From a virus, in the UHGV virus genome UHGV-0132893: a stretch of 64,000 bases of DNA; one strand, given 5' to 3'. Numbering within the stretch: position 1 is the first letter of the stretch; every line of letters starts with the position of its first letter. Below are positions 5,163 through 54,060 of the stretch, in pieces. A program made the position numbers and the translations under genes. Below the pieces are notes generated by a model. It was given only the letters and a program-made list of their open reading frames with translations, did no database searches and had not been told where the DNA came from.

Positions 5163-5660
5163 TCAAGCACAATTTGCTTTCATTACCTTATGGATTCTTT
5201 TTTCAGCATCTTCATAAGTTTCTTTAGTAATAAACTTAATTGCTGCAATATTGGCATTGTAGAAGAGTCTGAGCTTCGAGTCAATCCTTTTTGTCATTAC
5301 ATCGAATTTATGTTGAAGGTTTGCTTCACCATAGACTAGGCCACCTTTTGTGTAGTAGGTCTGAATGATGTAAAAGTCAAAAAATTCTTTTCCAAAGCTC
5401 TCAATATCTTTTTTAATATACTCAGAAGAAGTCTCGTAAGTCATCCAATCACTCTCCTTAGTGACTACCTTCTTCCGAGTCTTCCCAGCAACTTTTCTTT
5501 TTGTCACACTGTTAAGCTGTTTCTTTCCGATATAATATTGTCCAGTCTTCTTACAGTGCACTAAATAGACAAAGCCAAAATGTTTAGTGGGGTCAACTTC
5601 CCCACATAAAGATACCCAATGACCGTAGGTGGGGCAATTGCCAAATCCTTTAATCTTCAT
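5163..5660 (-). CDS. GIY-YIG domain nuclease (possible homing endonuclease)
   Basis: FGFVYLVHCKKTGQYYIGKK matches GIY-(10-11)-YIG spacing of GIY-YIG nucleases. Confidence 0.5.
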   Translation of the reverse strand: MKIKGFGNCPTYGHWVSLCGEVDPTKHFGFVYLVHCKKTGQYYIGKKQLNSVTKRKVAGKTRKKVVTKESDWMTYETSSEYIKKDIESFGKEFFDFYIIQTYYTKGGLVYGEANLQHKFDVMTKRIDSKLRLFYNANIAAIKFITKETYEDAEKRIHKVMKANCA

Positions 5661-6752: not shown

Positions 6753-7610
6753 TTAGTCTTCTGTATCGAAGTCTTCATCTTCTTCGTCATCTGGGTCTGG
6801 CAAGTCTTCATCGTCACCATCATCAGAATCATTCGAAGATTTATGGTCTGTTGCGTCTTCTTCAGTGATTTCACCGTTATCTTCGACACCATCAAGACCA
6901 AGCATAGCCAGTTCATCTTCATCCAGTTCAGGTTCACCGTTAGCACCGTTACCACCAGTGTAAGGTACAAGAGTATCAATGATAAACTGTTCCTGAATAG
7001 GCTTTGTCAAGACATTGTTCTCAAAAGTGTAGAAGTGAGTAGAAAGAATCACACTACCAAAAGAACCGTTACCAACTGCAATATCTGGATGAATTACATC
7101 ATAGTTCTTATCATCTTCATGTTTGTCAGATGCTTGAGCTTTGATTTTCTTCATCGGCTGCTTAACAGCTACACGCTTACCATTTACTTCTTCAATCAGC
7201 ATTACAGGGAATGACTGTTTAGCTGTCCATACAGCACCATCTTTATAAGCTGCTGCACGACTTACTTTCAAGATGTAGTAAGTGTCTGCTTCAAATGGTG
7301 GTTTGCAACCAAACTTCTCTTCGAAGTCATCTGCATCAACTGCTTCAGTGGTAACTTTATCCCAACCTTCTGGGTTTTTCTTAGACTTAGTAAACTCTTT
7401 AAACAGCTTGTTACCATCTTCTGCCAGAATTGAAACGCTGTAGTTACAATCTTTTCCTGGGAATTTCTTATCAATAGACTTACCTTTTCCCGGACGTGGT
7501 GAAGTATTCAGGTAATAAAACCAGACATCTTTCAGCAGGTAACGCAGAGTTTGACGTTCAGTACCATTGTACTTCTCTACCGGAGCTTTCATTTTAACAA
7601 CTTTAGACAT
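6753..7610 (-). CDS. putative single-stranded DNA-binding protein (acidic C-terminal tail)
   Basis: 285-aa ORF ending DDGDDEDLPDPDDEEDEDFDTED; SSB-like acidic tail; in replication gene block. Confidence 0.45.
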   Translation of the reverse strand: MSKVVKMKAPVEKYNGTERQTLRYLLKDVWFYYLNTSPRPGKGKSIDKKFPGKDCNYSVSILAEDGNKLFKEFTKSKKNPEGWDKVTTEAVDADDFEEKFGCKPPFEADTYYILKVSRAAAYKDGAVWTAKQSFPVMLIEEVNGKRVAVKQPMKKIKAQASDKHEDDKNYDVIHPDIAVGNGSFGSVILSTHFYTFENNVLTKPIQEQFIIDTLVPYTGGNGANGEPELDEDELAMLGLDGVEDNGEITEEDATDHKSSNDSDDGDDEDLPDPDDEEDEDFDTED

Positions 7611-10263: not shown

Positions 10264-10271
10264 TCTCTCTT

Positions 10272-11015
10272 TTAAACTTTAATGATGGCTCTTAGCTTGT
10301 TCTCAAGGTCTGCAAGAGTACCATTATTATGAATAATGTCACGCTCATATTTTGTAGAAATCCCATTTTCTGAAACATGTGATGAAACTTTGTCCACATT
10401 GTCTCTTTTTACTTCAATAGTTTGGTGTGCAAATCTACTCAGCCATTCAGCTTCAGAGTCAAATCTTAAATCACTGATTAAGACAAAACCATATTGATTT
10501 CTAAGTGAGCACATTTCATGGAATCTAACCATTCTTTTTTCAAGGTCTTTAGACCAGAACTTGTCGCCCATTACTTTACGGACAACTTCAGTACCCCAAA
10601 TCTGTTGAATTTGTCTTGATGAGAATTTATACTTTTTACTAAATCCCAGACGTGTTAATAGGGTAGGTTTAGCAACCTTCTTAAGCTCCATGATTAATCG
10701 TCCGGTTAACTCTGACATAAGCTTGAAGTCCATATGGTAACGTTCATCTCTGAAGGTGAACTCCATAGCTTCCGTAACTTTAAACATCAGTTCAGGATAT
10801 GATAAGTCAAAAACCTGTGGAGTCTCTTTAGTTTCACCGTACAGGTCATTCCAAGTCAAGTCAAATATCTTTGATGCAGATAGTTTAAGGTTGTCTGCAA
10901 AGGCCATTACTTCAACATTGTAGCCATACTCATCCTCTAAAATGTTCTTCACAATAGAACATGAGGTGTCTTTTCCAGAACGTGCCTTTCCAGTAAAGGC
11001 GATAATATTACTCAT
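10272..11015 (-). CDS. P-loop nucleotide kinase, probable dNMP kinase
   Basis: N-terminal IAFTGKARSGKDT Walker A resembling T4 gp1-type deoxynucleoside monophosphate kinases. Confidence 0.5.
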   Translation of the reverse strand: MSNIIAFTGKARSGKDTSCSIVKNILEDEYGYNVEVMAFADNLKLSASKIFDLTWNDLYGETKETPQVFDLSYPELMFKVTEAMEFTFRDERYHMDFKLMSELTGRLIMELKKVAKPTLLTRLGFSKKYKFSSRQIQQIWGTEVVRKVMGDKFWSKDLEKRMVRFHEMCSLRNQYGFVLISDLRFDSEAEWLSRFAHQTIEVKRDNVDKVSSHVSENGISTKYERDIIHNNGTLADLENKLRAIIKV

Positions 11016-11076: not shown

Positions 11077-11877
11077 TTAGTGCAGTTGCTCAGCAGACTC
11101 TTTTTCAGCCATAGCTGAGATTTGCTTCACAAAATCATCACCGAAGTTAATGCGTAGTTTCTCTTCAATGATTGAAGCACCGATGTTCACCAAAACATCA
11201 TTGATTGCTTGCATACTAACGCCACCAGTCATCTCTTCAATGAACTCAATACTTACACCCATCATCTGTGAAAGTTGGATTAGTGCAACGATATTCATCA
11301 TCGTAGAGATAGCTGGAATCATCAGTGCAACTTTCACCTGAAGAGGTTCTATATCAGCTACAGAGTCATTTTCAACAGCTTCTTCCAAAGACTCTTTAGT
11401 TTGCTGGATAATTTCTTTGATTCGTGGGCTTAACTCTTCTACGCCCCAATCAAGTTTTTCATATCGTGAAAGTTTCTCTTCCATGCGCTTCTCAAGAACT
11501 GCCATAACAGCACTTGTTGATGAGATTAGTGTGTCAATAAGGAAATCAGTATCCTTAGTCAGCAATAGTTCCTTTTCTTCATCTGACATCCTGATATAGT
11601 CATTCTTTTGCATTTCATAAAAAATGAACTCTGCAAGCGCATCAACACCGACTGCAATAGATGCAAGGGCAAGTGTAGTATCTGACAACATCATATTAAC
11701 CTGCTCTGCAAAAGCACCGTTATCAGTTTTATCTTCAGGCAAGTTATAGCTTTTTGGCATAAACTGTTCTGTATAGTTATTTCCACGAAGAATCATAGCC
11801 ATGCTTTCTACAGCATTGATTAAAAATGCTTCATCAATACCTTTTTCTTTAAGCATTTGGTCTACAGTAGTATTCAT
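11077..11877 (-). CDS. hypothetical protein
   Basis: 266-aa ORF. Confidence 0.45.
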   Translation of the reverse strand: MNTTVDQMLKEKGIDEAFLINAVESMAMILRGNNYTEQFMPKSYNLPEDKTDNGAFAEQVNMMLSDTTLALASIAVGVDALAEFIFYEMQKNDYIRMSDEEKELLLTKDTDFLIDTLISSTSAVMAVLEKRMEEKLSRYEKLDWGVEELSPRIKEIIQQTKESLEEAVENDSVADIEPLQVKVALMIPAISTMMNIVALIQLSQMMGVSIEFIEEMTGGVSMQAINDVLVNIGASIIEEKLRINFGDDFVKQISAMAEKESAEQLH

Positions 11878-47144: not shown

Positions 47145-47220
47145 TGGAGAATCCGAAGGGACTCGAACCCTTATAAACCTGTTTTGCAGACAGGCACATA
47201 GCCATTTCTGTCACGGATTC
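47145..47220 (-). tRNA. tRNA-Cys (GCA)
   Basis: TGG (CCA) start on plus strand, T-arm aaggg-actcgaa-ccctt, anticodon arm cctgt-tttgcag-acagg. Confidence 0.6.
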
Positions 47221-47224
47221 AAAT

Positions 47225-47317
47225 TGGAGGAAGATACCAGACTTGAACTGGTACACCGATTTCTCAGCTACTGGCAGTTTAGCAAACTGCTCCCTTACCT
47301 TTTAGGGTTAATCTTCC
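47225..47317 (-). tRNA. tRNA-Ser (GCU), long variable arm
   Basis: T-arm accag-acttgaa-ctggt; anticodon arm gcagt-ttagcaa-actgc; acceptor ggaagat/atcttcc. Confidence 0.6.
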
Positions 47318-47319
47318 AT

Positions 47320-48054
47320 TTATTTCTGTAATGCGTTCTTCATTTCTGGTGTTGCAATAGTGTCAATTACACCAGTTTTACAAGCATCATCAAACCAGTC
47401 TGGTAAGATACCTGCTAAGAACCCATTGATATTCGTTTTAAGGTACTCTGCAATAAGAGAAGCTTCTTCTTCAATCATCTGCACAACTTCATCTGCATAA
47501 GCTGTAATCTTTGAGATACCTTCATTAATCTTACTAACAGCTTGGTTAGCTAAATCAGAAATAGTATCAAGACCTTTGTCAATAGCGTCTTGTAAGTCAC
47601 TTAATACATCATTAACACCGTCTAGTGCACTGTTAATCGTATCAATAGCTTTTTGGCCATACTCTGTAGCAACACCCATAATACCACTAAATGGTGTACA
47701 ACCAACTTGTTCACCTGCTGCACCCATAACATTAGAATAGCCTTTTGCTACCTGCATACGTGATGAGAACTCATCAATGGACTTTTGACCGTAATCTGTC
47801 AGTGTTTTGGTAGTTGATGTAGTGCTTGTCAGACTCGTGGTAAAGCTGTTAAGCAGAACTGTTGTAAGTCCAGCAGCAACAAGCTTATCCTTTACTGTAG
47901 GGTCTGATACAGAGCTAATAGAGCTTACAAGTGATGTAGAGGCAGCTACGGTTCCACCGAGAACTGCTGCACCAGTAATAAGGGGGTTAGAAAACCCTTT
48001 ACCAGTTTTTAAGAGATTGAAAATCTCCTTACCTTGTTCTGTCATCTCTTTCAT
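47320..48054 (-). CDS. hypothetical protein (Ser/Thr-rich N-terminus, helical C-terminus)
   Basis: ORF track 47320..48117 overlaps a tRNA; start moved to internal Met at 48054. Confidence 0.45.
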   Translation of the reverse strand: MKEMTEQGKEIFNLLKTGKGFSNPLITGAAVLGGTVAASTSLVSSISSVSDPTVKDKLVAAGLTTVLLNSFTTSLTSTTSTTKTLTDYGQKSIDEFSSRMQVAKGYSNVMGAAGEQVGCTPFSGIMGVATEYGQKAIDTINSALDGVNDVLSDLQDAIDKGLDTISDLANQAVSKINEGISKITAYADEVVQMIEEEASLIAEYLKTNINGFLAGILPDWFDDACKTGVIDTIATPEMKNALQK

Positions 48055-48070
48055 TAAGCACCTTTGAAAT

Positions 48071-48147
48071 TGGTAGTCCAGTGGGATTTGAACCCTCTTC
48101 TCATGTTTTTCAGACACGCGCTTTAACCATATAAGCTACTTGGACTA
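48071..48147 (-). tRNA. tRNA, tentatively Phe (GAA)
   Basis: T-loop atttgaa, acceptor tagtcca/tggacta; anticodon loop ttttcag with 4/5-bp stem. Confidence 0.5.
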
Positions 48148-48152
48148 TAAAT

Positions 48153-48228
48153 TGGGGTGACCTACGGGATTTGAACCCGTATAGACCATGTTCACAGCAT
48201 GGGTCATTACCATTTATGATAAGGCCAC
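48153..48228 (-). tRNA. tRNA-His (GUG)
   Basis: T-arm acggg-atttgaa-cccgt; anticodon arm ccatg-ttcacag-catgg. Confidence 0.6.
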
Positions 48229-48259
48229 ATTTAAGGACTCTCGTAAGAATCCTTAGAAG

Positions 48260-48335
48260 TGGCAGCGGCATAAGGATTTGAACCTTAATAGGACAGCTTC
48301 AGAGACTGCTGCATTGCCAGTTATGCTATACCGCT
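48260..48335 (-). tRNA. tRNA, anticodon not resolved
   Basis: T-arm taagg-atttgaa-cctta, D-stem gcat/atgc, acceptor agcggca/(t)accgct. Confidence 0.5.
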
Positions 48336-48340
48336 AAATT

Positions 48341-48418
48341 TGGTACTCCATATCGGATTCGAACCGATACATAACACAGATTTTAAGTCTGGCCTCTCTG
48401 CCAATTGGAGTAATGGAG
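48341..48418 (-). tRNA. tRNA, anticodon tentative (loop reads UAA but no long variable arm)
   Basis: T-arm atcgg-attcgaa-ccgat; loop caga-ttttaag-tctg. Confidence 0.45.
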
Positions 48419-48421
48419 CAT

Positions 48422-48497
48422 TGGCGGGGGATGTTGGAATTGAACCAACTTCTTCGATTTCAAAGACCGAGGTTTTAACCTTGTAAACTAATCCCCT
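48422..48497 (-). tRNA. tRNA-Gln (UUG)
   Basis: T-arm gttgg-aattgaa-ccaac; anticodon loop ttcaaag; acceptor gggggat/atcccct. Confidence 0.55.
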
Positions 48498-48505
48498 TTA
48501 AATCT

Positions 48506-49063
48506 TTACTTTCTTAGTGGATGAATAAAGAATGCCAACATAACTCTTTCCCTTGAGAATGCTCTTTCTTTTGGAACAACACTTTTGAGTTTCCATCCAA
48601 CATAAATTCTCCAGTAGAATTGTTTACCAAAGATTTTAATTGATGGAATAAAAGCGAATAATCCCCAAGCATTACTGTTCCACATTAGGAGATAACCAGT
48701 CTGATTATCTTCAGGGTTAGAACTTACGTTGATATTACCTTTCCACTTAGTAACATCTTTTACATCTCTTCCTAACACATGGTAAGAGAAGTTATAAGCT
48801 TTGTTTCTCCAGAGCCATCCAACTCTCTGCATGTAGACACCAAGCTTACCAATCTTTCTAATCTTAGCCCATCGTTTGATATGACCTGCATCACCATCAA
48901 TTGGGTTGTCATAAGTCTCCATCCATCTGAACCCGAAAGGTAAGTGTCCTTTCTTCTCACTGTAGAATGGAACTACAAAAGGTGCTAAGATAACTGCTAA
49001 GATTGCTGCAAATGGTTCTAACAAAGCTAAGAAAATCCATGAAGCATACTTTAAGTATCTCAT
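48506..49063 (-). CDS. membrane protein embedded in tRNA array
   Basis: 185 aa; N-terminal hydrophobic helix WIFLALLEPFAAILAVILAPFVVPF. Confidence 0.45.
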   Translation of the reverse strand: MRYLKYASWIFLALLEPFAAILAVILAPFVVPFYSEKKGHLPFGFRWMETYDNPIDGDAGHIKRWAKIRKIGKLGVYMQRVGWLWRNKAYNFSYHVLGRDVKDVTKWKGNINVSSNPEDNQTGYLLMWNSNAWGLFAFIPSIKIFGKQFYWRIYVGWKLKSVVPKERAFSRERVMLAFFIHPLRK

Positions 49064-49302
49064 TGTCTAATCCTCGTAAGGAGGTAAATGTTATTATTCG
49101 TTTCTAAACCTTCTGGTAAAACTGTCTCAAAAATAACACTCTTCAGATGTCTACCACCAAAACAATCACGTATAAATCTTTCTACTCTAGCGGGGTCACA
49201 TAAGTATCCCACTTTTAAGAAAATGTGGTGTTCAACACCAATGACCCTGACAAACTCAATACTCTCACAGTTTTCATGTTCAACTACTGTTAATGTTTGC
49301 AT
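49060..49302 (-). CDS. hypothetical protein embedded in tRNA array
   Basis: 80-aa ORF coupled to downstream ORF. Confidence 0.4.
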   Translation of the reverse strand: MQTLTVVEHENCESIEFVRVIGVEHHIFLKVGYLCDPARVERFIRDCFGGRHLKSVIFETVLPEGLETNNNIYLLTRIRQ

Positions 49303-49319
49303 AGTATCACCTGTTTATC

Positions 49320-49395
49320 TGGCGCAGGATAAGGGATTCGAACCCCTATTAACAGCTTCGTAGACTGTTGCTCTTTCCATTTGAACTAATCCTGC
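49320..49395 (-). tRNA. tRNA-Arg (ACG)
   Basis: T-loop attcgaa; anticodon loop ttcgtag; acceptor gcaggat/atcctgc. Confidence 0.55.
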
Positions 49396-49401
49396 AAAAA
49401 T

Positions 49402-49480
49402 TGGTGTTCCAAGACGGATTCGAACCGTCACTAATACAAGGTTTGAGCTTGCATCCTCTGCCAATTGGGATACTGGAACA
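49402..49480 (-). tRNA. tRNA, anticodon tentative (loop reads CAA)
   Basis: T-arm gacgg-attcgaa-ccgtc; D-stem atcc/ggat; loop caag-gtttgag-cttg. Confidence 0.45.
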
Positions 49481-49555
49481 TGGTACTCACTAAAGGACTT
49501 GAACCTTTTTCTTCATCTTGTAAGGGTGATGTTTTACCATATAAACTAAGCGAGT
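49481..49555 (-). tRNA. tRNA-Val (UAC)
   Basis: T-arm aaagg-acttgaa-ccttt; anticodon arm tcatc-ttgtaag-ggtga. Confidence 0.6.
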
Positions 49556-49650
49556 ATGAAAGAGGTCTGGAGTTGTGCCGCTAACTCAACTCCGTGGTAT
49601 TTGTTACGGTCTTCAGTTGACTCAAAGCGGTCTTTCACTTGACCTCTTAA
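49556..49650 (-). ncRNA. tRNA-like / structured element lacking canonical T-loop
   Basis: 8-bp terminal complement aagaggtc...gacctctt and 7-bp internal stem ggagttg/caactcc; no GTTCGAAT-type T-loop. Confidence 0.3.
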
Positions 49651-49651
49651 T

Positions 49652-49727
49652 TGGTGCTCCCACAAGGACTCGAACCCTGATAAGTTGCTTACAAGGCAAC
49701 CGTAATAACCAATTATACGATAGGAGC
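49652..49727 (-). tRNA. tRNA-Thr (UGU)
   Basis: T-loop actcgaa; anticodon arm gttgc-ttacaag-gcaac. Confidence 0.6.
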
Positions 49728-49734
49728 ATTAATT

Positions 49735-49809
49735 TGGAGCATCCAGAGGGAATCGAACCCTCAACCTCAGTTTGGAAGACTGTAATTTTCCCGTTTAAAC
49801 TATGGATGC
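49735..49809 (-). tRNA. tRNA-Gly (UCC)
   Basis: T-arm gaggg-aatcgaa-ccctc; anticodon loop ttggaag; acceptor gcatcca/tggatgc. Confidence 0.55.
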
Positions 49810-49815
49810 ACTAAT

Positions 49816-49891
49816 TGGTGGAGTCACCGAGAATTGAACTCGGTTCCCAAGTTTGCAAAACTCGAGTTTTAACCATATAAACTATGACCCC
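49816..49891 (-). tRNA. tRNA-Ala (UGC)
   Basis: T-arm ccgag-aattgaa-ctcgg; anticodon loop ttgcaaa. Confidence 0.55.
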
Positions 49892-49897
49892 ATTGTT

Positions 49898-49973
49898 TGG
49901 TACAGGTGGAGGGAATTGAACCCATCGTCTTACTGATTAAGAGTCAGCCGCATAACCATTTTGCTACACCTGC
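49898..49973 (-). tRNA. tRNA-Lys (CUU), paralog of 51228..51303
   Basis: T-loop aattgaa; anticodon loop ctga-ttaagag-tcag; near-identical acceptor/T regions to Lys(UUU) copy. Confidence 0.5.
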
Positions 49974-49980
49974 ATTAATT

Positions 49981-50058
49981 TGGTAGGAGACAAGGGATTC
50001 GAACCCTCAAACACCAACTTCTAAGGATGGTAGGTTTACCAATTACCATCAATCTCCC
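49981..50058 (-). tRNA. tRNA, anticodon tentative (loop reads UAG)
   Basis: T-arm aaggg-attcgaa-ccctc; loop ccaac-ttctaag-gatgg. Confidence 0.45.
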
Positions 50059-50316
50059 ATTAAATCTTTTTAGAGAACTTCTAAGAACCTAAGCAACAAG
50101 GTTCCACAACAAGCTGTAATAACCTTAGAAGCCCTCTAAAAAGACCTAAAAAGGTCTTTGCATAGTCTTGTTTAATCCGGTGACTAGAACCTTTGGAGAG
50201 CTTGATATTATCTCTTCTCCGTGACACCTACTAGGTGTTTTATCAGTGTGTACGACAATACACGAGGGATACCAAAGCAACATCCGAATGAAGCTTGGCT
50301 TTAAAATCTTATTAGG

Positions 50317-50404
50317 CGGTAAGTAAAGGAGTCGAACCCTCACCGTATCTCTACAGTGGCAACTGTTTTCAAGACAGTTTGGCTACCATTAGCCGCTACC
50401 TACC
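50317..50404 (-). tRNA. tRNA-Ser (UGA), long variable arm, CCA apparently not encoded
   Basis: anticodon arm aactg-tttcaag-acagt; ~20-nt variable region; weak T-stem. Confidence 0.45.
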
Positions 50405-50417
50405 CCTAATAAGACTT

Positions 50418-50500
50418 TGGCATGGGACGGAGGAGTTGAACCCCTTTGAAACGGTTTTGGAGGCCGTTGCTCATGCCTTAGAGTCTTAACATCGTCCCAT
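50418..50500 (-). tRNA. tRNA-Trp (CCA), unusually long D region
   Basis: T-loop agttgaa; anticodon arm acggt-tttggag-gccgt; acceptor atgggac/gtcccat. Confidence 0.5.
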
Positions 50501-50643
50501 ACTATAATTCGAAGCTTACCGTATTATCTCAACACTGTAAAGCCCCTTCTCAGATTATTTACATGTTCTGGAAAACATGAGATACAGACCACCTCCCTAC
50601 AGGAAGACCCTCTAAGGTCGTCTAAGTAATCTGCTAACTAAAT

Positions 50644-50720
50644 TGGCACACCCTACAGGATTCGAACCTGTAACTAACGATTTAGAAGACCGTTGCTCTA
50701 TCCAATTGAACTAAGGGTGC
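50644..50720 (-). tRNA. tRNA-Arg (UCU)
   Basis: T-arm acagg-attcgaa-cctgt; anticodon loop ttagaag. Confidence 0.55.
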
Positions 50721-50995
50721 ATTAACATTTTAAAGGGTACTTATTGCATTTAAGCCAAGCCCCATAAGGGATACCCTTTAGAATGTTGCCCACCTTATTA
50801 ATCATACCGTGGGCGAGTACGCCAAATTCTTTGATGAGGGATTGGAAGACCTCACTGGTGTTTAGCCTATCAAGCTACTGCCAGAAAAACATTGTCGTTT
50901 GCATTTATTTTAAATTTGCAAAATAGACGCTACGCAACGAAAACTAAGGTTACTATAAAGTAGTCACATCTCAATGTCAACAACTTTATTGAAAT

Positions 50996-51071
50996 TGGTA
51001 CTGGTAGGTGGAATCGAACCACCGATGTTCCCTTATCAGGGGAGTGTTATAACCTTCTTAACTATACCAGC
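50996..51071 (-). tRNA. tRNA-Ile (GAU)
   Basis: T-arm ggtgg-aatcgaa-ccacc; anticodon arm ttccc-ttatcag-gggag. Confidence 0.6.
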
Positions 51072-51072
51072 T

Positions 51073-51149
51073 TGGAGGTTCAGATGGGAATCGAACCCAC
51101 ATTCATAGGGCTTATGAGACCCTTGCATTACCTTATCTGCGACTGAACC
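51073..51149 (-). tRNA. tRNA-Met (CAU)
   Basis: T-loop aatcgaa; anticodon loop ttatgag; acceptor ggttcag/ctgaacc. Confidence 0.55.
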
Positions 51150-51227
51150 AGAATAAGTACCCTAGTTAGAGAAACTGTTGAGTGGGTGTTTCCAGCCGCG
51201 CAGGTGTTTCTCAGTTAAGGGTGAATT

Positions 51228-51303
51228 TGGTAGAAGTGGAGGGATTCGAACCCATCGCCTGTCAGATTAAAAGTCTGCCGCATCACCATTCTGCTACACT
51301 TCC
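51228..51303 (-). tRNA. tRNA-Lys (UUU)
   Basis: T-loop attcgaa; anticodon loop caga-ttaaaag-tctg. Confidence 0.55.
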
Positions 51304-51306
51304 ATT

Positions 51307-51449
51307 AAATTATCTTTGTAGATAAGCTACCCAGACTTGCTTAAGGTCTGTAGCGATGTGCCTTTTGGGTTTAAATCTAGAATTTACCCTTCACCCTTTG
51401 TGGTCGCATACTCACAGGTAAGCTTAATAACTTATCTACAAAGATAATT
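51307..51449. repeat. 19-bp perfect inverted repeat (aattatctttgtagataag / cttatctacaaagataatt) flanking 105 bp
   Basis: exact reverse complements at 51307-51325 and 51431-51449. Confidence 0.7.
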
Positions 51450-51730
51450 ACCAGACCGTTGTTTATCATCTTAAGTGCTACCATTACACCAACTCGACAT
51501 CTGCCGAGTGAAGGAATCGAACCTTCGCCTTTTCTTTACCGGAGAAATAGATTGTTTAAGTTTTGCTGTAAACGGTCTTCTGTAAATTTGTTGAGCCAGA
51601 CCAAGTTTTAAATTTTCAAAATTAAATTGGCTTGAAATTTCATACATTCTTGCTGTATTTGGTCTTCTGCTCCTTTAAAGAATACTCGTAAGAACTCTTT
51701 AAGGGAGGAGCTAAATAGCCCTCTCAAAAT

Positions 51731-51807
51731 TGGCGGCTACGATGAGACTTGAACTCACATCATCTCCCGTGACAGGGGAGTATTTTCTCCAGTTAAACTA
51801 CATAGCC
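51731..51807 (-). tRNA. tRNA-Asp (GUC)
   Basis: T-loop acttgaa; anticodon arm ctccc-gtgacag-gggag. Confidence 0.6.
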
Positions 51808-51812
51808 TTTAT

Positions 51813-51901
51813 TGGTGTGCCGTGTAGGAGTCGAACCTACCGAGTCTCAATGACAAGGGATTTACAGTCCCCACCGCTACCATCTACGGGATAACGACAC
51901 A
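51813..51901 (-). tRNA. tRNA-Tyr (GUA), long variable arm
   Basis: T-arm gtagg-agtcgaa-cctac; anticodon loop ggga-tttacag-tccc; ~15-nt variable arm. Confidence 0.6.
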
Positions 51902-51908
51902 TTTAATT

Positions 51909-51985
51909 TGGCGGTTAGTCAGGGATTCGAACCCTGTGCCATTCGCTTAACAGGCGACCGCACATACCTTATGTGCTTCCTAACC
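51909..51985 (-). tRNA. tRNA-Asn (GUU)
   Basis: T-arm caggg-attcgaa-ccctg; anticodon loop ttaacag. Confidence 0.55.
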
Positions 51986-52068
51986 ATGTTTAGTATTACC
52001 AGACCGTATCTTTCAATTTTTCCGCTAAAAATTTAATGAGTATTGCTGTAAACGGTCTTCTGTAAATT

Positions 52069-52145
52069 TGGAGGCGGGTGCAGGAGTCGAACCTGCCGAT
52101 ACCATGCTAATGAGACATGTGAGACGCCCTTTCTCTATACCCGCA
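52069..52145 (-). tRNA. tRNA with CAU anticodon (second copy: Met or Ile2)
   Basis: T-arm gcagg-agtcgaa-cctgc; D-stem gaga/tctc; anticodon loop taatgag. Confidence 0.55.
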
Positions 52146-52236
52146 ATTCTTAATGACCAGACCAAATCTCTTCTTTGTCCGATTTACCTTCAGATGAATA
52201 AGATTAAGTTTGCTGTAATTGGTCTTCTGTCAAAAC

Positions 52237-52314
52237 TGGCGTTCCAGAAGGGATTTGAACCCTCAAATATCCACTTTGAAAGAGTGGTGACTTTACCATT
52301 TTGTCCACTGGAAC
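52237..52314 (-). tRNA. tRNA-Glu (UUC)
   Basis: T-loop atttgaa; anticodon arm ccact-ttgaaag-agtgg; acceptor gttccag/ctggaac. Confidence 0.6.
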
Positions 52315-52321
52315 ATTAATT

Positions 52322-52398
52322 TGGTCTCTGTTGGAGGACTTGAACCTCCGGCCTTACCGCCCCAAACGGAACGCTCTACCAAGCTGAGCTAAACAGAG
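52322..52398 (-). tRNA. tRNA-Pro (UGG)
   Basis: T-arm ggagg-acttgaa-cctcc; anticodon loop ccccaaa; acceptor ctctgtt/aacagag. Confidence 0.6.
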
Positions 52399-52563
52399 AT
52401 AAACTTTTCAAACTCTATGTAACCACTTTAACATTATTTTTTAGTAGTTGTCAAGAACTTTTTTAAAATATTTTTCAGTATCTTAGAAAAGCTCTCATTT
52501 CGTTTCTATGTAGAACATATTAAAGGGTATTAAACACATTGTCAATACCCTTTTTAAAACTTT

Positions 52564-53979
52564 TTACCAGATGTAACGGTCAATCATTACTGCTTTGAGC
52601 ATTACGCTGATTGGGTCAAACTTCTCACCACCAAGCAGAGCTTTTAAAGTGGCTGGAGAGAAACCTGATACCATTGCTACACCGTTGTCCTTAACAGATA
52701 CTTCGCAAGTACCATTACGGTTTGCTAAGTACCAGAATACCAGTTGTGGCATCTCATATCCAGCTTTTTTGTACTTACTGCGAATTTCTTCAAAGTTTGT
52801 ACGACCATTTGCACCATCAACCTGATTGAACTCCATATCAGAGAAGATGATAAGCTTACTTGGCATATCTTTCTGAGTCAAGTTGTTTCTCTTACCTGTC
52901 TCAAGAATACGGTCAAAAGCTGCTTGTAAGTTAGTTGAGCCATATTCAACATGACGCATCACCTGACGATGACGGTTTTTCAAATCACCACTCAGTTCAA
53001 TGAAATGAGGGTTTGTTGAATAGACCATTAACTCGTCCTTAAAGCATCCTGTGTTGCGTTCTGCTACATACAAGGCAAGAGATACACCAATATCAAGAGC
53101 AGTGATTGAACCAAGATTTACCCAAGACATCGAGCTTGAGACATCAGTCATACATAAGATGTTTTCACCTTCTGCCATCCAGTTTGGTAGTGCTTTCCAC
53201 TGCTCATTCGCAACATCTGCATTACCATACTTGATAGACTTAATCACATCGTATGGGTAAACAGCACCAGCGTTAATCTTAGTCTCACCTTTTGATAAGG
53301 ACTCAATGTAAGCTTTGTAGCGTTCTCCATCTTTACGGTTAAAGAGTTTTTGGTAACGTGCAGCAGCGAGTGAAGGAATCTTGCTGTAGTCAATCTTACC
53401 GAACTCATTAGCAGAGATTTTTTGCTCAACCGTATCAGAAAGTGCAGACAACAGTGTGCGGTACTCTTTCTCACTCAAGTTGGAAAACTTGCAGAAACGT
53501 TTTACAAACTGTTTGTGTCGTGGTTTTACTCGTGGTAACCACTTGGCTGCTAAACCTGCTGTTTCAGGGTCTAGTAATGCTGCTTCTAAATGCTTAAAGG
53601 CATCTGTCTCAAAACGAGTACCTACAAAGATTTTGAAGTCATCAAAACGACCAAGTTCTGCAATCTTATCCATAATACGAAGAACCTGTGTAGGCTCTAA
53701 AACTTTGTCTTCGATTGCTTGAAGTAAAACAGTTCTGAAGGCTTTACGCTCACCCATACCTTCTCGTACATCTCGCATATGCAGCAAAATACGAACTGCA
53801 ACATCAACATCTTCACGCAAAGCTTTGTAGAACAAGTCTGGTAAGATTTCTACATTGCTACGGCTTGAACCAGCAGCTTTGTAAAAGTCTACAAGAGCAG
53901 ACATTGATGAAGTATGGTTTACAGCACCATTTTCAGTTCGACCTGCATGAAGGTGCGCATGTTTAAATAATTCGCTCAT
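52564..53979 (-). CDS. von Willebrand factor A (vWA) domain protein
   Basis: C-terminal half has MIDAS DxSxS motif (MTDVSSSM); 471 aa; adjacent to tRNA array. Confidence 0.6.
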   Translation of the reverse strand: MSELFKHAHLHAGRTENGAVNHTSSMSALVDFYKAAGSSRSNVEILPDLFYKALREDVDVAVRILLHMRDVREGMGERKAFRTVLLQAIEDKVLEPTQVLRIMDKIAELGRFDDFKIFVGTRFETDAFKHLEAALLDPETAGLAAKWLPRVKPRHKQFVKRFCKFSNLSEKEYRTLLSALSDTVEQKISANEFGKIDYSKIPSLAAARYQKLFNRKDGERYKAYIESLSKGETKINAGAVYPYDVIKSIKYGNADVANEQWKALPNWMAEGENILCMTDVSSSMSWVNLGSITALDIGVSLALYVAERNTGCFKDELMVYSTNPHFIELSGDLKNRHRQVMRHVEYGSTNLQAAFDRILETGKRNNLTQKDMPSKLIIFSDMEFNQVDGANGRTNFEEIRSKYKKAGYEMPQLVFWYLANRNGTCEVSVKDNGVAMVSGFSPATLKALLGGEKFDPISVMLKAVMIDRYIW

Positions 53980-54060
53980 ATTTTACTCTCTTCTCTCATT
54001 TGTTGGTTGATGTGACAGACTTTATAGCAACTTTGTAGAGTCTGTCAACACCTTTTAAAA

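Follow-up and report, generated by a model that had tools for sequence, protein, structure and literature searches.

The window, a 64,000-nucleotide stretch of the virus genome UHGV-0132893, carries on its minus strand an array of head-to-tail tRNA genes flanked by a Ro60-like protein gene and the terminase module. ARAGORN, run at default settings, called 26 tRNA genes spanning 47145-52398, of which 24 scored above the gathering score of the Rfam tRNA model (33-63 bits). The genes called by ARAGORN and passing Rfam are tRNA-Cys(GCA) (47145-47220; 56.4 bits), Ser(GCU) (47225-47317), Phe(GAA) (48071-48146), His(GUG) (48153-48228), Gln(CUG) (48260-48335; 57 bits), Leu(UAA) (48341-48419), Gln(UUG) (48422-48497), Arg(ACG) (49320-49395), Leu(CAA) (49402-49479), Val(UAC) (49481-49555), Thr(UGU) (49652-49727), Gly(UCC) (49735-49809), Ala(UGC) (49816-49891), Lys(CUU) (49898-49973), Leu(UAG) (49981-50058), Ser(UGA) (50315-50404), Arg(UCU) (50644-50720), Ile(GAU) (50996-51071), a tRNA with anticodon CAU, either Met or Ile2 (51073-51149), Lys(UUU) (51228-51303), Asp(GUC) (51731-51807), Asn(GUU) (51909-51985), Glu(UUC) (52237-52314) and Pro(UGG) (52322-52398). 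The two calls below the Rfam threshold are Tyr(GUA) (51813-51900), which, like both Ser genes, keeps a long variable arm, and an atypical CAU tRNA with a U1xC72 mismatch and U37 (52069-52145). With the addition of a non-canonical Trp(CCA)-like gene (50418-50500) there are 27 genes, which between them serve every one of the 20 amino acids.

Three ORFs on the same strand are embedded in the array. The first, encoding 244 residues (47320-48054; DUF7217, phrog_2114), lies between the Ser(GCU) and Phe genes and starts with an in-frame ATG (48054) preceded by an AAAGG motif; the others encode an 80-residue product (49060-49302; phrog_14202), whose stop codon shares the sequence ATGA with the start codon of the following ORF, and a 185-residue product with a hydrophobic N-terminus (48506-49063; DUF7338, phrog_2143). 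Conserved minus-strand hairpins are located directly upstream of tRNA-Leu(UAG) (50060-50149; 26-bp stem, z -6.9), directly upstream of tRNA-Arg(UCU) (50724-50787) and in the spacer adjoining tRNA-Lys(UUU) (51308-51449; 22-bp stem, 98-nt interior, z -5.8). Candidate sigma-70-like promoters on the array strand comprise a tandem pair upstream of the array (52425-52545; TTGACA-18-TAAAGT and TTGACA-17-TAATAT) and an internal site (50952-50980; TTGACA-17-TATAGT, 11 of 12 matches), with a perfect TTGACA at 52545, 52454 and 50980, although promoter-like sites overall were not in excess (19 versus 16.5 in shuffled sequence).

The preliminary description, made by eye, had proposed about 27 minus-strand tRNA genes forming a near-complete decoding set, and its reading of the array, boundaries, strand and isotypes is supported, the end coordinates being identical to those of ARAGORN. 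Every anticodon that it listed was reproduced with the exception of Trp(CCA), which was rejected by the software and is supported instead by covariation in relatives, while Gln(CUG) and the ORF at 47320-48054 had been missed alongside the two ORFs correctly placed. The encoded CCA that it described is present in 25 of the 26 genes, Ser(UGA) ending in CC without the final A. These errors are minor, as is its overstatement that the Lys(UUU) and Lys(CUU) genes are near-identical outside the anticodon stem-loop; they share 83% identity across 86 nt and differ in the acceptor stem as well as in the anticodon arm.

Judged by sequence comparison, the window belongs to a Felixounavirus (Felix O1-like myovirus). 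It shares 97.6% identity with published Felixounavirus genomes annotated with the identical 26-tRNA set, so that the array as such is not new; the cluster of Felix O1 was described by Whichard et al. (2010, PMC3185647), and all 26 tRNAs of the window are annotated in MW481326. Felix O1, MW481326 and MH571750 share with the window the gene order, the anticodons and the position of the array between the Ro-like gene and the terminase, at a DNA identity of 93-97.6%, with no essential difference; relatives vary in which single tRNAs (17 to 26 in all), small ORFs and Y-RNA-like modules they carry. T5-like phages (Tequintavirus; OSYSP, MF402939) also possess a large tRNA array with interspersed small ORFs, but belong to another virus family and differ in gene order. 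Overall, the locus is very probably a Felixounavirus array of 26 canonical tRNAs and a non-canonical tRNA-Trp(CCA), accompanied by Y-RNA-like modules and a Ro60-like protein. What appears to be new beyond the known array is the odd tRNA-Trp, four putative small RNA genes in the spacers and the predicted Ro60 fold upstream; neither the Trp-like gene nor the modules were found in the annotations of MW481326 and MH571750.

All three Leu genes (78 nt for CAA and UAG, 79 nt for UAA) lack the long variable arm, which the preliminary description had ascribed either to its own mis-folding or to atypical tRNAs. An alignment of 11 short-arm tRNA-Leu genes from five phages yielded a common cloverleaf in which 18 of 20 pairs show compensatory changes and U8, the AAUUGG D loop and A73 are invariant, favouring atypical tRNAs over mis-folding. 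On this alignment, short-arm tRNA-Leu is a form conserved across Felix-like, Moogle-like and T5-like phages; the three genes would encode a phage-specific short form that retains the identity elements of E. coli tRNA-Leu (A73, U8, AAUUGG D loop) and has lost the long arm. The tRNA-Leu of T5-like phages is of the same type (77 nt, AAUUGG D loop, A73) and about 84% identical to Leu(UAG) of the window. Two Leu genes were found in the OSYSP tRNA region, both short-arm, and a tRNA-Leu from OSYSP has been used to read TCR codons as Leu in E. coli (PMC13596443).

The Trp-like gene (50418-50500), for which ARAGORN at default settings made no call and which among Rfam models scores highest with tRNA-Sec, at only 23 bits, has a CCA anticodon, G73, an encoded CCA and a short variable loop, and folds with an 8-bp acceptor stem, a 4-bp T stem, a 9-nt connector and a 3-bp D stem. 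Among relatives, 99% of cells in the alignment are paired and 8 of 20 pairs are changed on both sides, compared with 0 in slid controls, and this covariation supports a non-canonical tRNA with 8/4 acceptor/T-stem geometry. Allo-tRNAs with 8/4 or 9/3 geometry were reportedly described by Mukai et al. in 2017, and the geometry of tRNA-Sec is 8/5. The likeness lies in the 8-bp acceptor stem stacked on the 4-bp T stem to give 12 bp; unlike these tRNAs, the Trp-like gene combines the CCA anticodon and G73 with its short variable loop, 9-nt connector and 3-bp D stem, and shows no apparent link to Ser or Sec identity.

Host RNA polymerase would transcribe the array from the two upstream promoters and the internal one, the precursor would be cut by host tRNA-processing enzymes, and the encoded CCA ends would make the resulting molecules direct substrates of host aminoacyl-tRNA synthetases. 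They would then supplement the pool for the A/U-rich codons over-used by this 39% GC phage, and would sustain translation if host tRNAs were depleted. In the comparison of anticodons with codon usage proposed in the preliminary description, set against a hand-entered E. coli codon table, the phage over-uses codons for which it carries a Watson-Crick cognate tRNA (Mann-Whitney p 0.014), including AGA (8.6x), ACA (3.5x), AAG (3.1x), TCA (2.8x), CTA (2.2x) and CCA (2.0x). However, codon matching is modest: the tRNAs carried for CGU, AGC, CAG and AUC read codons that are under-used in the phage, and the array offers no Watson-Crick cognate for the NNU codons, which are heavily used. The same over-use trend was reported for Felix O1 (PMC3185647). 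The recoded strain Syn61-delta-3 is susceptible to Felixounavirus isolates REP05-12 (PMC12269064), and infection of recoded cells by REP phages has been ascribed to the viral tRNA-Ser(UGA) (PMC13596443), so that at least this tRNA is functional in E. coli.

Alternatively, the array may owe its selective advantage mainly to counter-defence, the phage tRNAs replacing host tRNAs cut by anticodon nucleases or tRNA-targeting immunity; we regard this as a tentative proposal, somewhat short of an even chance. The odd features would then make poor nuclease substrates, among them the short-arm Leu genes, the divergence of the two Lys genes, the 8/4 stems of the Trp-like gene and altered loops. A near-complete set covering 20 amino acids, including tRNAs for codons that are not over-used, fits replacement better than supplementation, and the array contains both Lys(CUU) and Lys(UUU), the latter being the isoacceptor targeted by PrrC and PARIS. 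Phage tRNAs have been proposed to escape tRNA-targeting defences through anticodon-loop changes (PMC10264068), viral tRNAs have been argued to resist tRNA nucleases (PMC13596443) and the variable loop of tRNA-Tyr is reportedly cut by Septu (PMC13096335). Against this, Tyr and both Ser genes retain their long variable arms and many of the carried tRNAs do match over-used codons; moreover, counter-defence and codon supply are not mutually exclusive roles.

Directly upstream of the array lies a minus-strand gene (52564-53979) for a 471-residue protein matching Pfam DUF2828 and DUF7788, with the MIDAS residues of a vWA domain (D279-x-S281-x-S283, T349, D381). No PDB match was obtained at the sequence level, whereas the structure model (pLDDT 88.7) returned Ro60/Rsr structures as all of its top 11 PDB matches, over the full length and with E values of about 1e-8; a Ro60 fold is thus predicted. 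In its Pfam assignment the protein differs from bacterial Rsr (Ro60), which belongs to the TROVE family. Structured RNA genes in the seemingly "empty" spacers were absent from the preliminary description. The spacers within 51453-52231 carry four minus-strand modules, in each of which ACAGCAA comes after a 7-bp stem that covaries; the module motif matched four times in the window versus 0.13 expected. A covariance model trained on unrelated phages only, searched against the whole window, returned the three short modules as its top three matches: b (51995-52064; 31.2 bits, E 2e-5), a (52153-52231; 28.3 bits, E 1e-4) and c (51592-51671; 18.7 bits, E 0.038). The long module d (51453-51578), separated from tRNA-Lys(UUU) by the 51308-51449 hairpin, has the basal stem AGACCGU/ACGGUCU and ACAGCAA around a V hairpin, T arm, closed acceptor-like hairpin and D arm, and contains a circularly permuted tRNA-like unit at 51474-51526. 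In unrelated phages the stem-plus-ACAGCAA module adjoins homologous genes, always on the gene strand: across 87 loci that code for homologues, the covariance model matched this strand 62 times and the other strand 0 times. Each locus has one copy of the permuted tRNA-like unit, which lies beside the gene and has an acceptor-like hairpin that covaries; the copy in a mycobacteriophage falls inside a match to Rfam YrlA.

Judged by genomic association alone, the modules are most likely RNA partners of the Ro60-like protein, with which all four would assemble in parallel to bacterial Rsr and its Y RNAs YrlA/YrlB (Chen et al. 2014, PMC4201824; Rfam RF02553). As in those systems and in Thermus phage phiLo, which has Ro60 with Yrl1/Yrl2 (PMC12135203), a Ro60-fold gene would lie beside several small RNA genes on one strand, one RNA containing a tRNA-like domain (T arm, closed acceptor stem and D arm in that order, enclosed by a basal stem) and the remaining RNAs being short and without it. 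The Rfam YrlA consensus is without the handle seen in the window, a 7-bp stem with WCAGCAA (W = A or U), and module d gave no match to the YrlA model even at E 10; unlike Rsr-YrlA systems, the putative RNAs of the window sit within a tRNA array. No description of the modules was found in Rfam or in the searchable literature. If such an assembly exists, the phage would produce an RNA-handling particle from the transcription unit of its own tRNAs.

We consider it unlikely that the modules are instead cis elements of the transcript, for instance acting as a processing or stability signal for pre-tRNAs, regulating the Ro-like gene through its 3'-UTR or serving as a landing pad for the Ro-like ring in precursor quality control, rather than trans-acting Y-RNA partners. 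They abut tRNA ends and hence lie in the same precursor, the further conserved hairpins of the array are likewise directly upstream of tRNAs, and at many metagenomic loci a single module is located 5-30 nt past the stop codon of the gene. In other phages, however, modules are upstream of the gene or present in two to four copies, and two promoters and two tRNAs lie between the modules and the Ro60-like gene in the window. The combination of a constant handle with variable inserted domains is Y RNA-like, and a Listeria phage with the same family of loci produces three very abundant unannotated transcripts near the homologous gene (PMC12282133).

Decay or loss of function in a substantial part of the array, in which the short Leu, Trp-like and low-scoring CAU and Tyr genes would be relics, pseudo-tRNAs swept along by recombination, is very improbable: although several such genes carry "pseudo" flags in the tRNAscan-based annotation of MH571750 and Felix O1, two ARAGORN calls fall under the Rfam threshold and tRNA content varies among relatives, the atypical genes keep their pairing by compensatory substitutions even where a flanking protein is only about 50% identical, which indicates purifying selection on structure, and OSYSP, the source of a tRNA-Leu used in E. 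coli, yielded only short-arm Leu genes in its tRNA region.

ARAGORN, applied to the 64-kb window, placed 26 tRNA genes between 47145 and 52398, all on the minus strand, and these limits are exactly the end coordinates and strand that had been assigned by eye in a preliminary description, every listed anticodon of which was reproduced. Membership was judged by a 7-bp acceptor stem, D and T arms, a 7-nt loop on the anticodon arm and a score above the curated threshold, and the array members are bacterial-type tRNA genes with the RF00005/ARAGORN cloverleaf, 24 of the 26 reaching the RF00005 gathering score in Rfam at 33-63 bits. The genes for tRNA-Tyr (51813-51900) and for one tRNA with a CAU anticodon (52069-52145) were called by ARAGORN only and gave weak tRNA-Sec matches in Rfam. 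The 3' CCA is encoded by 25 of the 26 genes, tRNA-Ser(UGA) carrying CC alone, and addition of a Trp-like gene (50418-50500, minus strand) brings the total to 27 genes serving all 20 amino acids. The near-complete list read by eye stands for the isotypes that it named but left out tRNA-Gln(CUG) (48260-48335). Likewise, the two protein genes reported inside the array (48506-49063 and 49060-49302) are present, but the embedded ORFs number three, the one at 47320-48054 having been overlooked. With such small corrections, both the observation and its interpretation hold. All three ORFs belong to conserved phage families without an assigned function, namely DUF7217 (phrog_2114; 47320-48054), DUF7338 (phrog_2143, with a hydrophobic N-terminus; 48506-49063) and phrog_14202 (49060-49302), the stop of which overlaps the start of the DUF7338 ORF; further small ORFs occur elsewhere in the arrays of relatives. 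Matches to microRNA, plastid and tmRNA families obtained over the array with permissive Rfam thresholds were dismissed as noise or as tRNAs on the wrong strand. The CAU gene at 52069-52145, which lies between two of the Y-RNA-like modules described below (a and b), combines a U1xC72 mismatch, U37 and a low model score; its loop, CUCAUUA, recurs in Citrobacter phage Mijalis, in Yersinia phage P778 and in one metagenomic relative. Candidate isotypes for the two CAU tRNAs of the array are initiator-like, Met and Ile2.

At 93-97.6% identity, the array region matches over 200 genomes of Felixounavirus (Felix O1-like myoviruses with E. coli, Salmonella and Shigella as hosts), with 224 phage records covering at least 80% of it and the best at 97.6% identity. 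Escherichia phage vB_EcoM-Pr103Blw (MW481326) has the identical 26 annotated tRNAs, with identical isotype calls and in identical order, and vB_EcoM-Ro111lw has 23 annotated tRNAs, several of them marked 'pseudo' by tRNAscan. Near-identical DNA and shared gene order identify the array as that of Felixounavirus. Since a cluster of 22 tRNAs was published, with a discussion of codon usage, in the Felix O1 genome paper of 2010 (PMC3185647), and since the array is annotated in close relatives, the array as such is already known in this well-sequenced genus and its finding, as stated, is ordinary. The locus is nevertheless more interesting than its annotation suggests, and its interest lies in what the annotations omit: short-arm tRNA-Leu genes, a covariation-supported Trp-like tRNA with an 8/4 fold, and Y-RNA-like genes. 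In the Mijalis record (KY654690.2), the annotated tRNA coordinates are offset by 58 nt from those of ARAGORN on the same sequence.

On the array strand, perfect TTGACA sites occur at two positions upstream of tRNA-Pro (52545 and 52454) and at one position between tRNA-Ile and tRNA-Arg(UCU) (50980), with another at 54048 upstream of the neighbouring gene; because the total of promoter-like sites is no higher than chance, all four are regarded as putative promoters only. When codon counts from 56 long ORFs of the window were compared with an E. coli table, over-use was found for AGA (8.6x), ACA (3.5x), AAG (3.1x), TCA (2.8x), CTA (2.2x), CCA (2.0x) and GTA (1.9x), all of which have a Watson-Crick cognate phage tRNA, and the overall test of cognate-codon over-use gave a p value of 0.014. 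The comparison of anticodons with codon usage, put forward as a check in the preliminary description, gave a partial fit: several cognate codons are over-used, but several of the carried tRNAs read codons under-used by the phage, which leaves room for a counter-defence role, as proposed in the literature (PMC10264068, PMC13096335). That tRNAs of this genus function has direct experimental support from the REP phages, as the Felixounavirus isolates REP05-12 infect the recoded strain Syn61-delta-3 (PMC12269064) and infection of recoded cells by REP phages has been attributed to expression of viral tRNA-Ser(UGA) (PMC13596443).

Three genes with Leu anticodons had been noted by eye to lack the long variable arm, either through mis-folding or as atypical tRNAs. 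The genes for Leu(UAA), Leu(CAA) and Leu(UAG) measure 78-79 nt, with a variable region of 4-7 nt in the ARAGORN folds (7-9 alignment columns), and none of the three has the stem-loop of at least 10 nt that makes up the long variable arm of class II tRNA-Leu. Mis-folding was weighed by comparing 11 short-arm genes from five phages (the window, Mijalis, P778, a metagenomic contig and the T5-like phage OSYSP), for which the consensus fold is a single cloverleaf without an extra arm; pairing is kept through both-side changes in 18 of 20 pairs, and all 11 genes share U8, the discriminator A73 and a D-loop with AAUUGG. The short form is real and no folding error, and these are atypical tRNAs. Both the variable arm and the anticodon are dispensable for E. 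coli LeuRS. The identity set of this enzyme consists of A73 and a D/T-loop tertiary framework (U8-A14, A15-U48, G18, G19) (PMC2377443), which the short-arm genes appear to satisfy, judged by their sequences. In OSYSP, both Leu tRNA genes within the 45 kb scanned, including the tRNA region, are of the short-arm form, and an anticodon-swapped tRNA-Leu from this phage reassigns TCR codons to leucine in E. coli (PMC13596443), which is indirect evidence for leucine charging of the short form. A literature search found no paper explicitly describing the missing arm of short phage tRNA-Leu.

The Trp(CCA) gene of the preliminary description fared less simply. The gene at 50418-50500 is rejected by ARAGORN under default settings, being detected only at the 80% threshold and with a four-base anticodon, and in Rfam it scores 23 bits against the tRNA-Sec model, below the gathering score; its pairing nevertheless covaries in relatives. 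The gene is kept in Mijalis, P778 and several metagenomic relatives, and a 14-mer scan of viral contigs, which returned mostly chance matches, yielded five further usable variants. In a fold of six distinct sequences, 99% of cells are paired, with an acceptor stem of 8 bp, a D stem of 3 bp, an anticodon stem of 5 bp, a T stem of 4 bp and a connector of 9 nt (AUGUUAAGA); 8 of the 20 pairs are altered on both sides, compared with none in a slid-partner control. In the canonical cloverleaf, tRNA-Trp is marked by the anticodon CCA and the discriminator G73. The anticodon loop of the Trp-like gene contains CCA, and this anticodon, G73 and the encoded CCA end are all conserved, but the fold departs from the canonical one in its 8/4 stems, its 9-nt connector and a C31xA39 mismatch. 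We interpret the gene as a non-canonical tRNA of the 8/4 type, probably a tRNA-Trp. Together, the short-arm Leu and 8/4 Trp-like forms offer natural experiments on the tRNA scaffold needs of E. coli synthetases, EF-Tu and the ribosome, and bear on recoding work that already employs tRNAs from such phages. The segment upstream of the Trp-like gene (50505-50643, minus strand) is nearly identical in Mijalis and contains the hairpin CAUGUUUUCCAGAACAUG. Upstream of their Trp-like genes, Mijalis (approximately 10265-10400) and P778 (approximately 11141-11270) have an additional tRNA-like element, roughly 120 nt in length, in which acceptor-like ends and a T arm are combined with a large insertion; this element is absent from the window, where the spacer measures 239 nt against 377-390 nt in the relatives.

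Adjoining the array upstream and on the same strand, a gene at 52564-53979 encodes a 471-residue protein assigned to Pfam DUF2828 and DUF7788 and to PHROG 850 ('RNA-binding protein'). Along its full length it shares 31-35% identity with mycobacteriophage proteins annotated 'Ro-like RNA binding protein', and hundreds of phages infecting Vibrio, Campylobacter, Listeria, Staphylococcus, Enterococcus and Bacillus encode homologues, the hosts spanning many phyla. Pfam reported only DUF2828 and DUF7788, and no TROVE family membership, even at an E value of 10, and a sequence search of the PDB gave no match, so that a fold search was needed. An AlphaFold model computed with 60 homologues (pLDDT 88.7, pTM 0.88) was compared with the PDB using Foldseek, and the top 11 matches were Ro60, Rsr or phiLo Ro60 structures (from Thermus phage phiLo, Xenopus, human and Deinococcus), with alignments spanning the entire protein (approximately 510-550 columns), TM scores of 0.5-0.66 and E values near 1e-8. 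The vWA MIDAS residues (D-x-S-x-S, T and D) are constant in the 60 homologues. The protein is therefore predicted from the model to have the Ro60/Rsr architecture, in which HEAT-like repeats form a ring and a MIDAS-bearing vWA domain comes after it. Identity with the Felix O1 virion protein 'Gp23' was ruled out, as Gp23 is 9.7 kDa.

Downstream of this Ro-like gene at 330-1100 nt, on the same strand, the spacers of the array contain four Y-RNA-like modules, each with the motif AGACCNNNUACAGCAA, which has four spacer matches against 0.13 expected. In each module, the 7 nt preceding the motif find their pairing partner 40-110 nt further downstream, forming a stem (the handle) that, with ACAGCAA, encloses an insert; the stems are compensatory (AGACCAA/UUGGUCU versus AGACCGU/ACGGUCU). 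Three modules are short (a, 52153-52231; b, 51995-52064; c, 51592-51671) and one, d (51453-51578), is long, all on the minus strand. Within module d, a small hairpin comes first, followed by a T arm (GAAGG-UUCGAUU-CCUUC), then by a closed acceptor-like hairpin (ACUCGGC-AGAU-GUCGAGU) and last by a D arm (GUGU-AAUGGUA-GCAC), a layout reproduced by the minimum-free-energy fold and shared with the circularly permuted tRNA-like domain of bacterial YrlA Y RNAs (PMC4201824; Rfam RF02553 consensus). The module set shares two features with YrlA RNAs, a position beside the Ro60-like gene on the same strand and a permuted tRNA-like domain. Module d fell below the YrlA gathering threshold of 69 bits, with no YrlA match in Rfam even at an E value of 10, and permissive Rfam thresholds over the array returned no family for the spacer modules or hairpins. 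A scan for the permuted layout gave a single hit in each of four sequences (the window, Mijalis, Cronobacter phage S13 and Mycobacterium phage Moostard), and every hit is next to the homologous gene and shares its strand. Covariation of the acceptor-like hairpin is seen in all four, and the hit in Moostard falls within an Rfam YrlA match that scores below threshold, at 37.9 bits.

The handle recurs in other phages. Among 80 metagenomic viral loci that encode a homologue of the protein, the stem with ACAGCAA was found 70 times on the gene strand against 6 times on the other, scrambled 7-mers giving 6-10. A refined pattern, with the motif ACAGCAA or UCAGCAA, gave 102 occurrences on the gene strand and 2 on the other, most of them no farther from the gene than 500 nt on its upstream side or 1 kb on its downstream side. 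Pairing in the 42 distinct handle stems is 100% by selection, their diversity being the informative part, and each of the seven pairs shows two-sided changes. At the second pair G-C is nearly universal, and the 3' strand is followed by a G. Because G-U pairs occur only in the gene-strand reading, the constraint is one on RNA. A covariance model was built from 16 modules of unrelated phages without any Felix-like sequence, two Campylobacter modules being excluded for MAFFT misalignment. In a search of the whole window, its three best hits were modules b, a and c (E values of 2e-5, 1e-4 and 0.04, respectively), and over 87 homologue-encoding loci it gave 62 hits (E≤0.01), all on the gene strand and none on the opposite one. 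Module d rests on the pattern scan and the fold, because the model is unable to span its 109-nt insert. Inserts differ, comprising permuted tRNA-like units, a tRNA without acceptor stem and other conserved domains, while the handle is constant, and Y RNAs and the phage modules thus share the same construction of variable inserts on a constant handle. In Listeria phage cka8, three modules lie 100-370 nt upstream of the Ro-like homologue; for its relative CKA15, three unannotated transcripts of very high abundance close to the homologous gene have been tentatively called Y RNAs (PMC12282133). Searches of Rfam and the literature found no family, and no paper tying DUF2828 or Felix O1-like phages to Y RNAs.

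Judged from genomic evidence alone, from which we infer both binding and function, the four Y-RNA-like genes are likely partners of the adjacent Ro60-fold protein. We further consider it moderately probable that the modules built of a stem and WCAGCAA (W = A/U) form an undescribed, widespread and modular family of phage Y RNAs partnering the DUF2828 branch of Ro60-like proteins, in which the constant handle would bind the protein ring and the variable insert would bring in host enzymes of tRNA handling or RNA decay, the module genes of Felix O1-like phages being matured within the tRNA array by the tRNA-processing machinery. If true, the modules, the 8/4 Trp tRNA and the short-arm Leu genes would amount to a toolkit of re-engineered tRNA scaffolds rather than a simple supply of extra tRNAs. 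With its Ro60-like gene and the four Y-RNA-like genes inside a tRNA operon, this genetically tractable E. coli/Salmonella phage offers a test of the function of bacterial and phage Ro60-Y RNA particles and of any tie to tRNA metabolism, and the conserved motif and covariance model allow RNA partners to be annotated for hundreds of phage DUF2828 proteins.

Several minor features of the spacers and related loci were recorded. Alternative inserts on the same handle are present at 5520-5615 of one IMG/VR locus (L082) and in other IMG/VR loci, one being a tRNA in normal order with the handle in place of the acceptor stem and another a recurrent domain, GAACCUUUCUGGAGGGGAAAGCAAAAACUCGCC. In S13, two long 'tRNAs' (6896-7138; 121 and 113 nt, annotated Ser and OTHER), to which the whole Rfam tRNA model aligns with large insertions, sit between the Ro-like gene and the YrlA-like module. 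The Val-Thr spacer of the window (49556-49651, minus strand) contains CUGAAGACCGUAACAAAUACC, which looks like a decayed copy of the module start CAGAAGACCGUUUACAGCAA. Long hairpins at 51308-51449, 50060-50149 and 50724-50787 (minus strand), with stems of 22, 26 and 16 bp, stop a few bases before tRNA-Lys(UUU), tRNA-Leu(UAG) and tRNA-Arg(UCU), respectively; the first two have z scores of -5.8 and -6.9. All three are retained in Mijalis with compensatory changes, and they may be RNase III or other processing sites, or further small RNAs.
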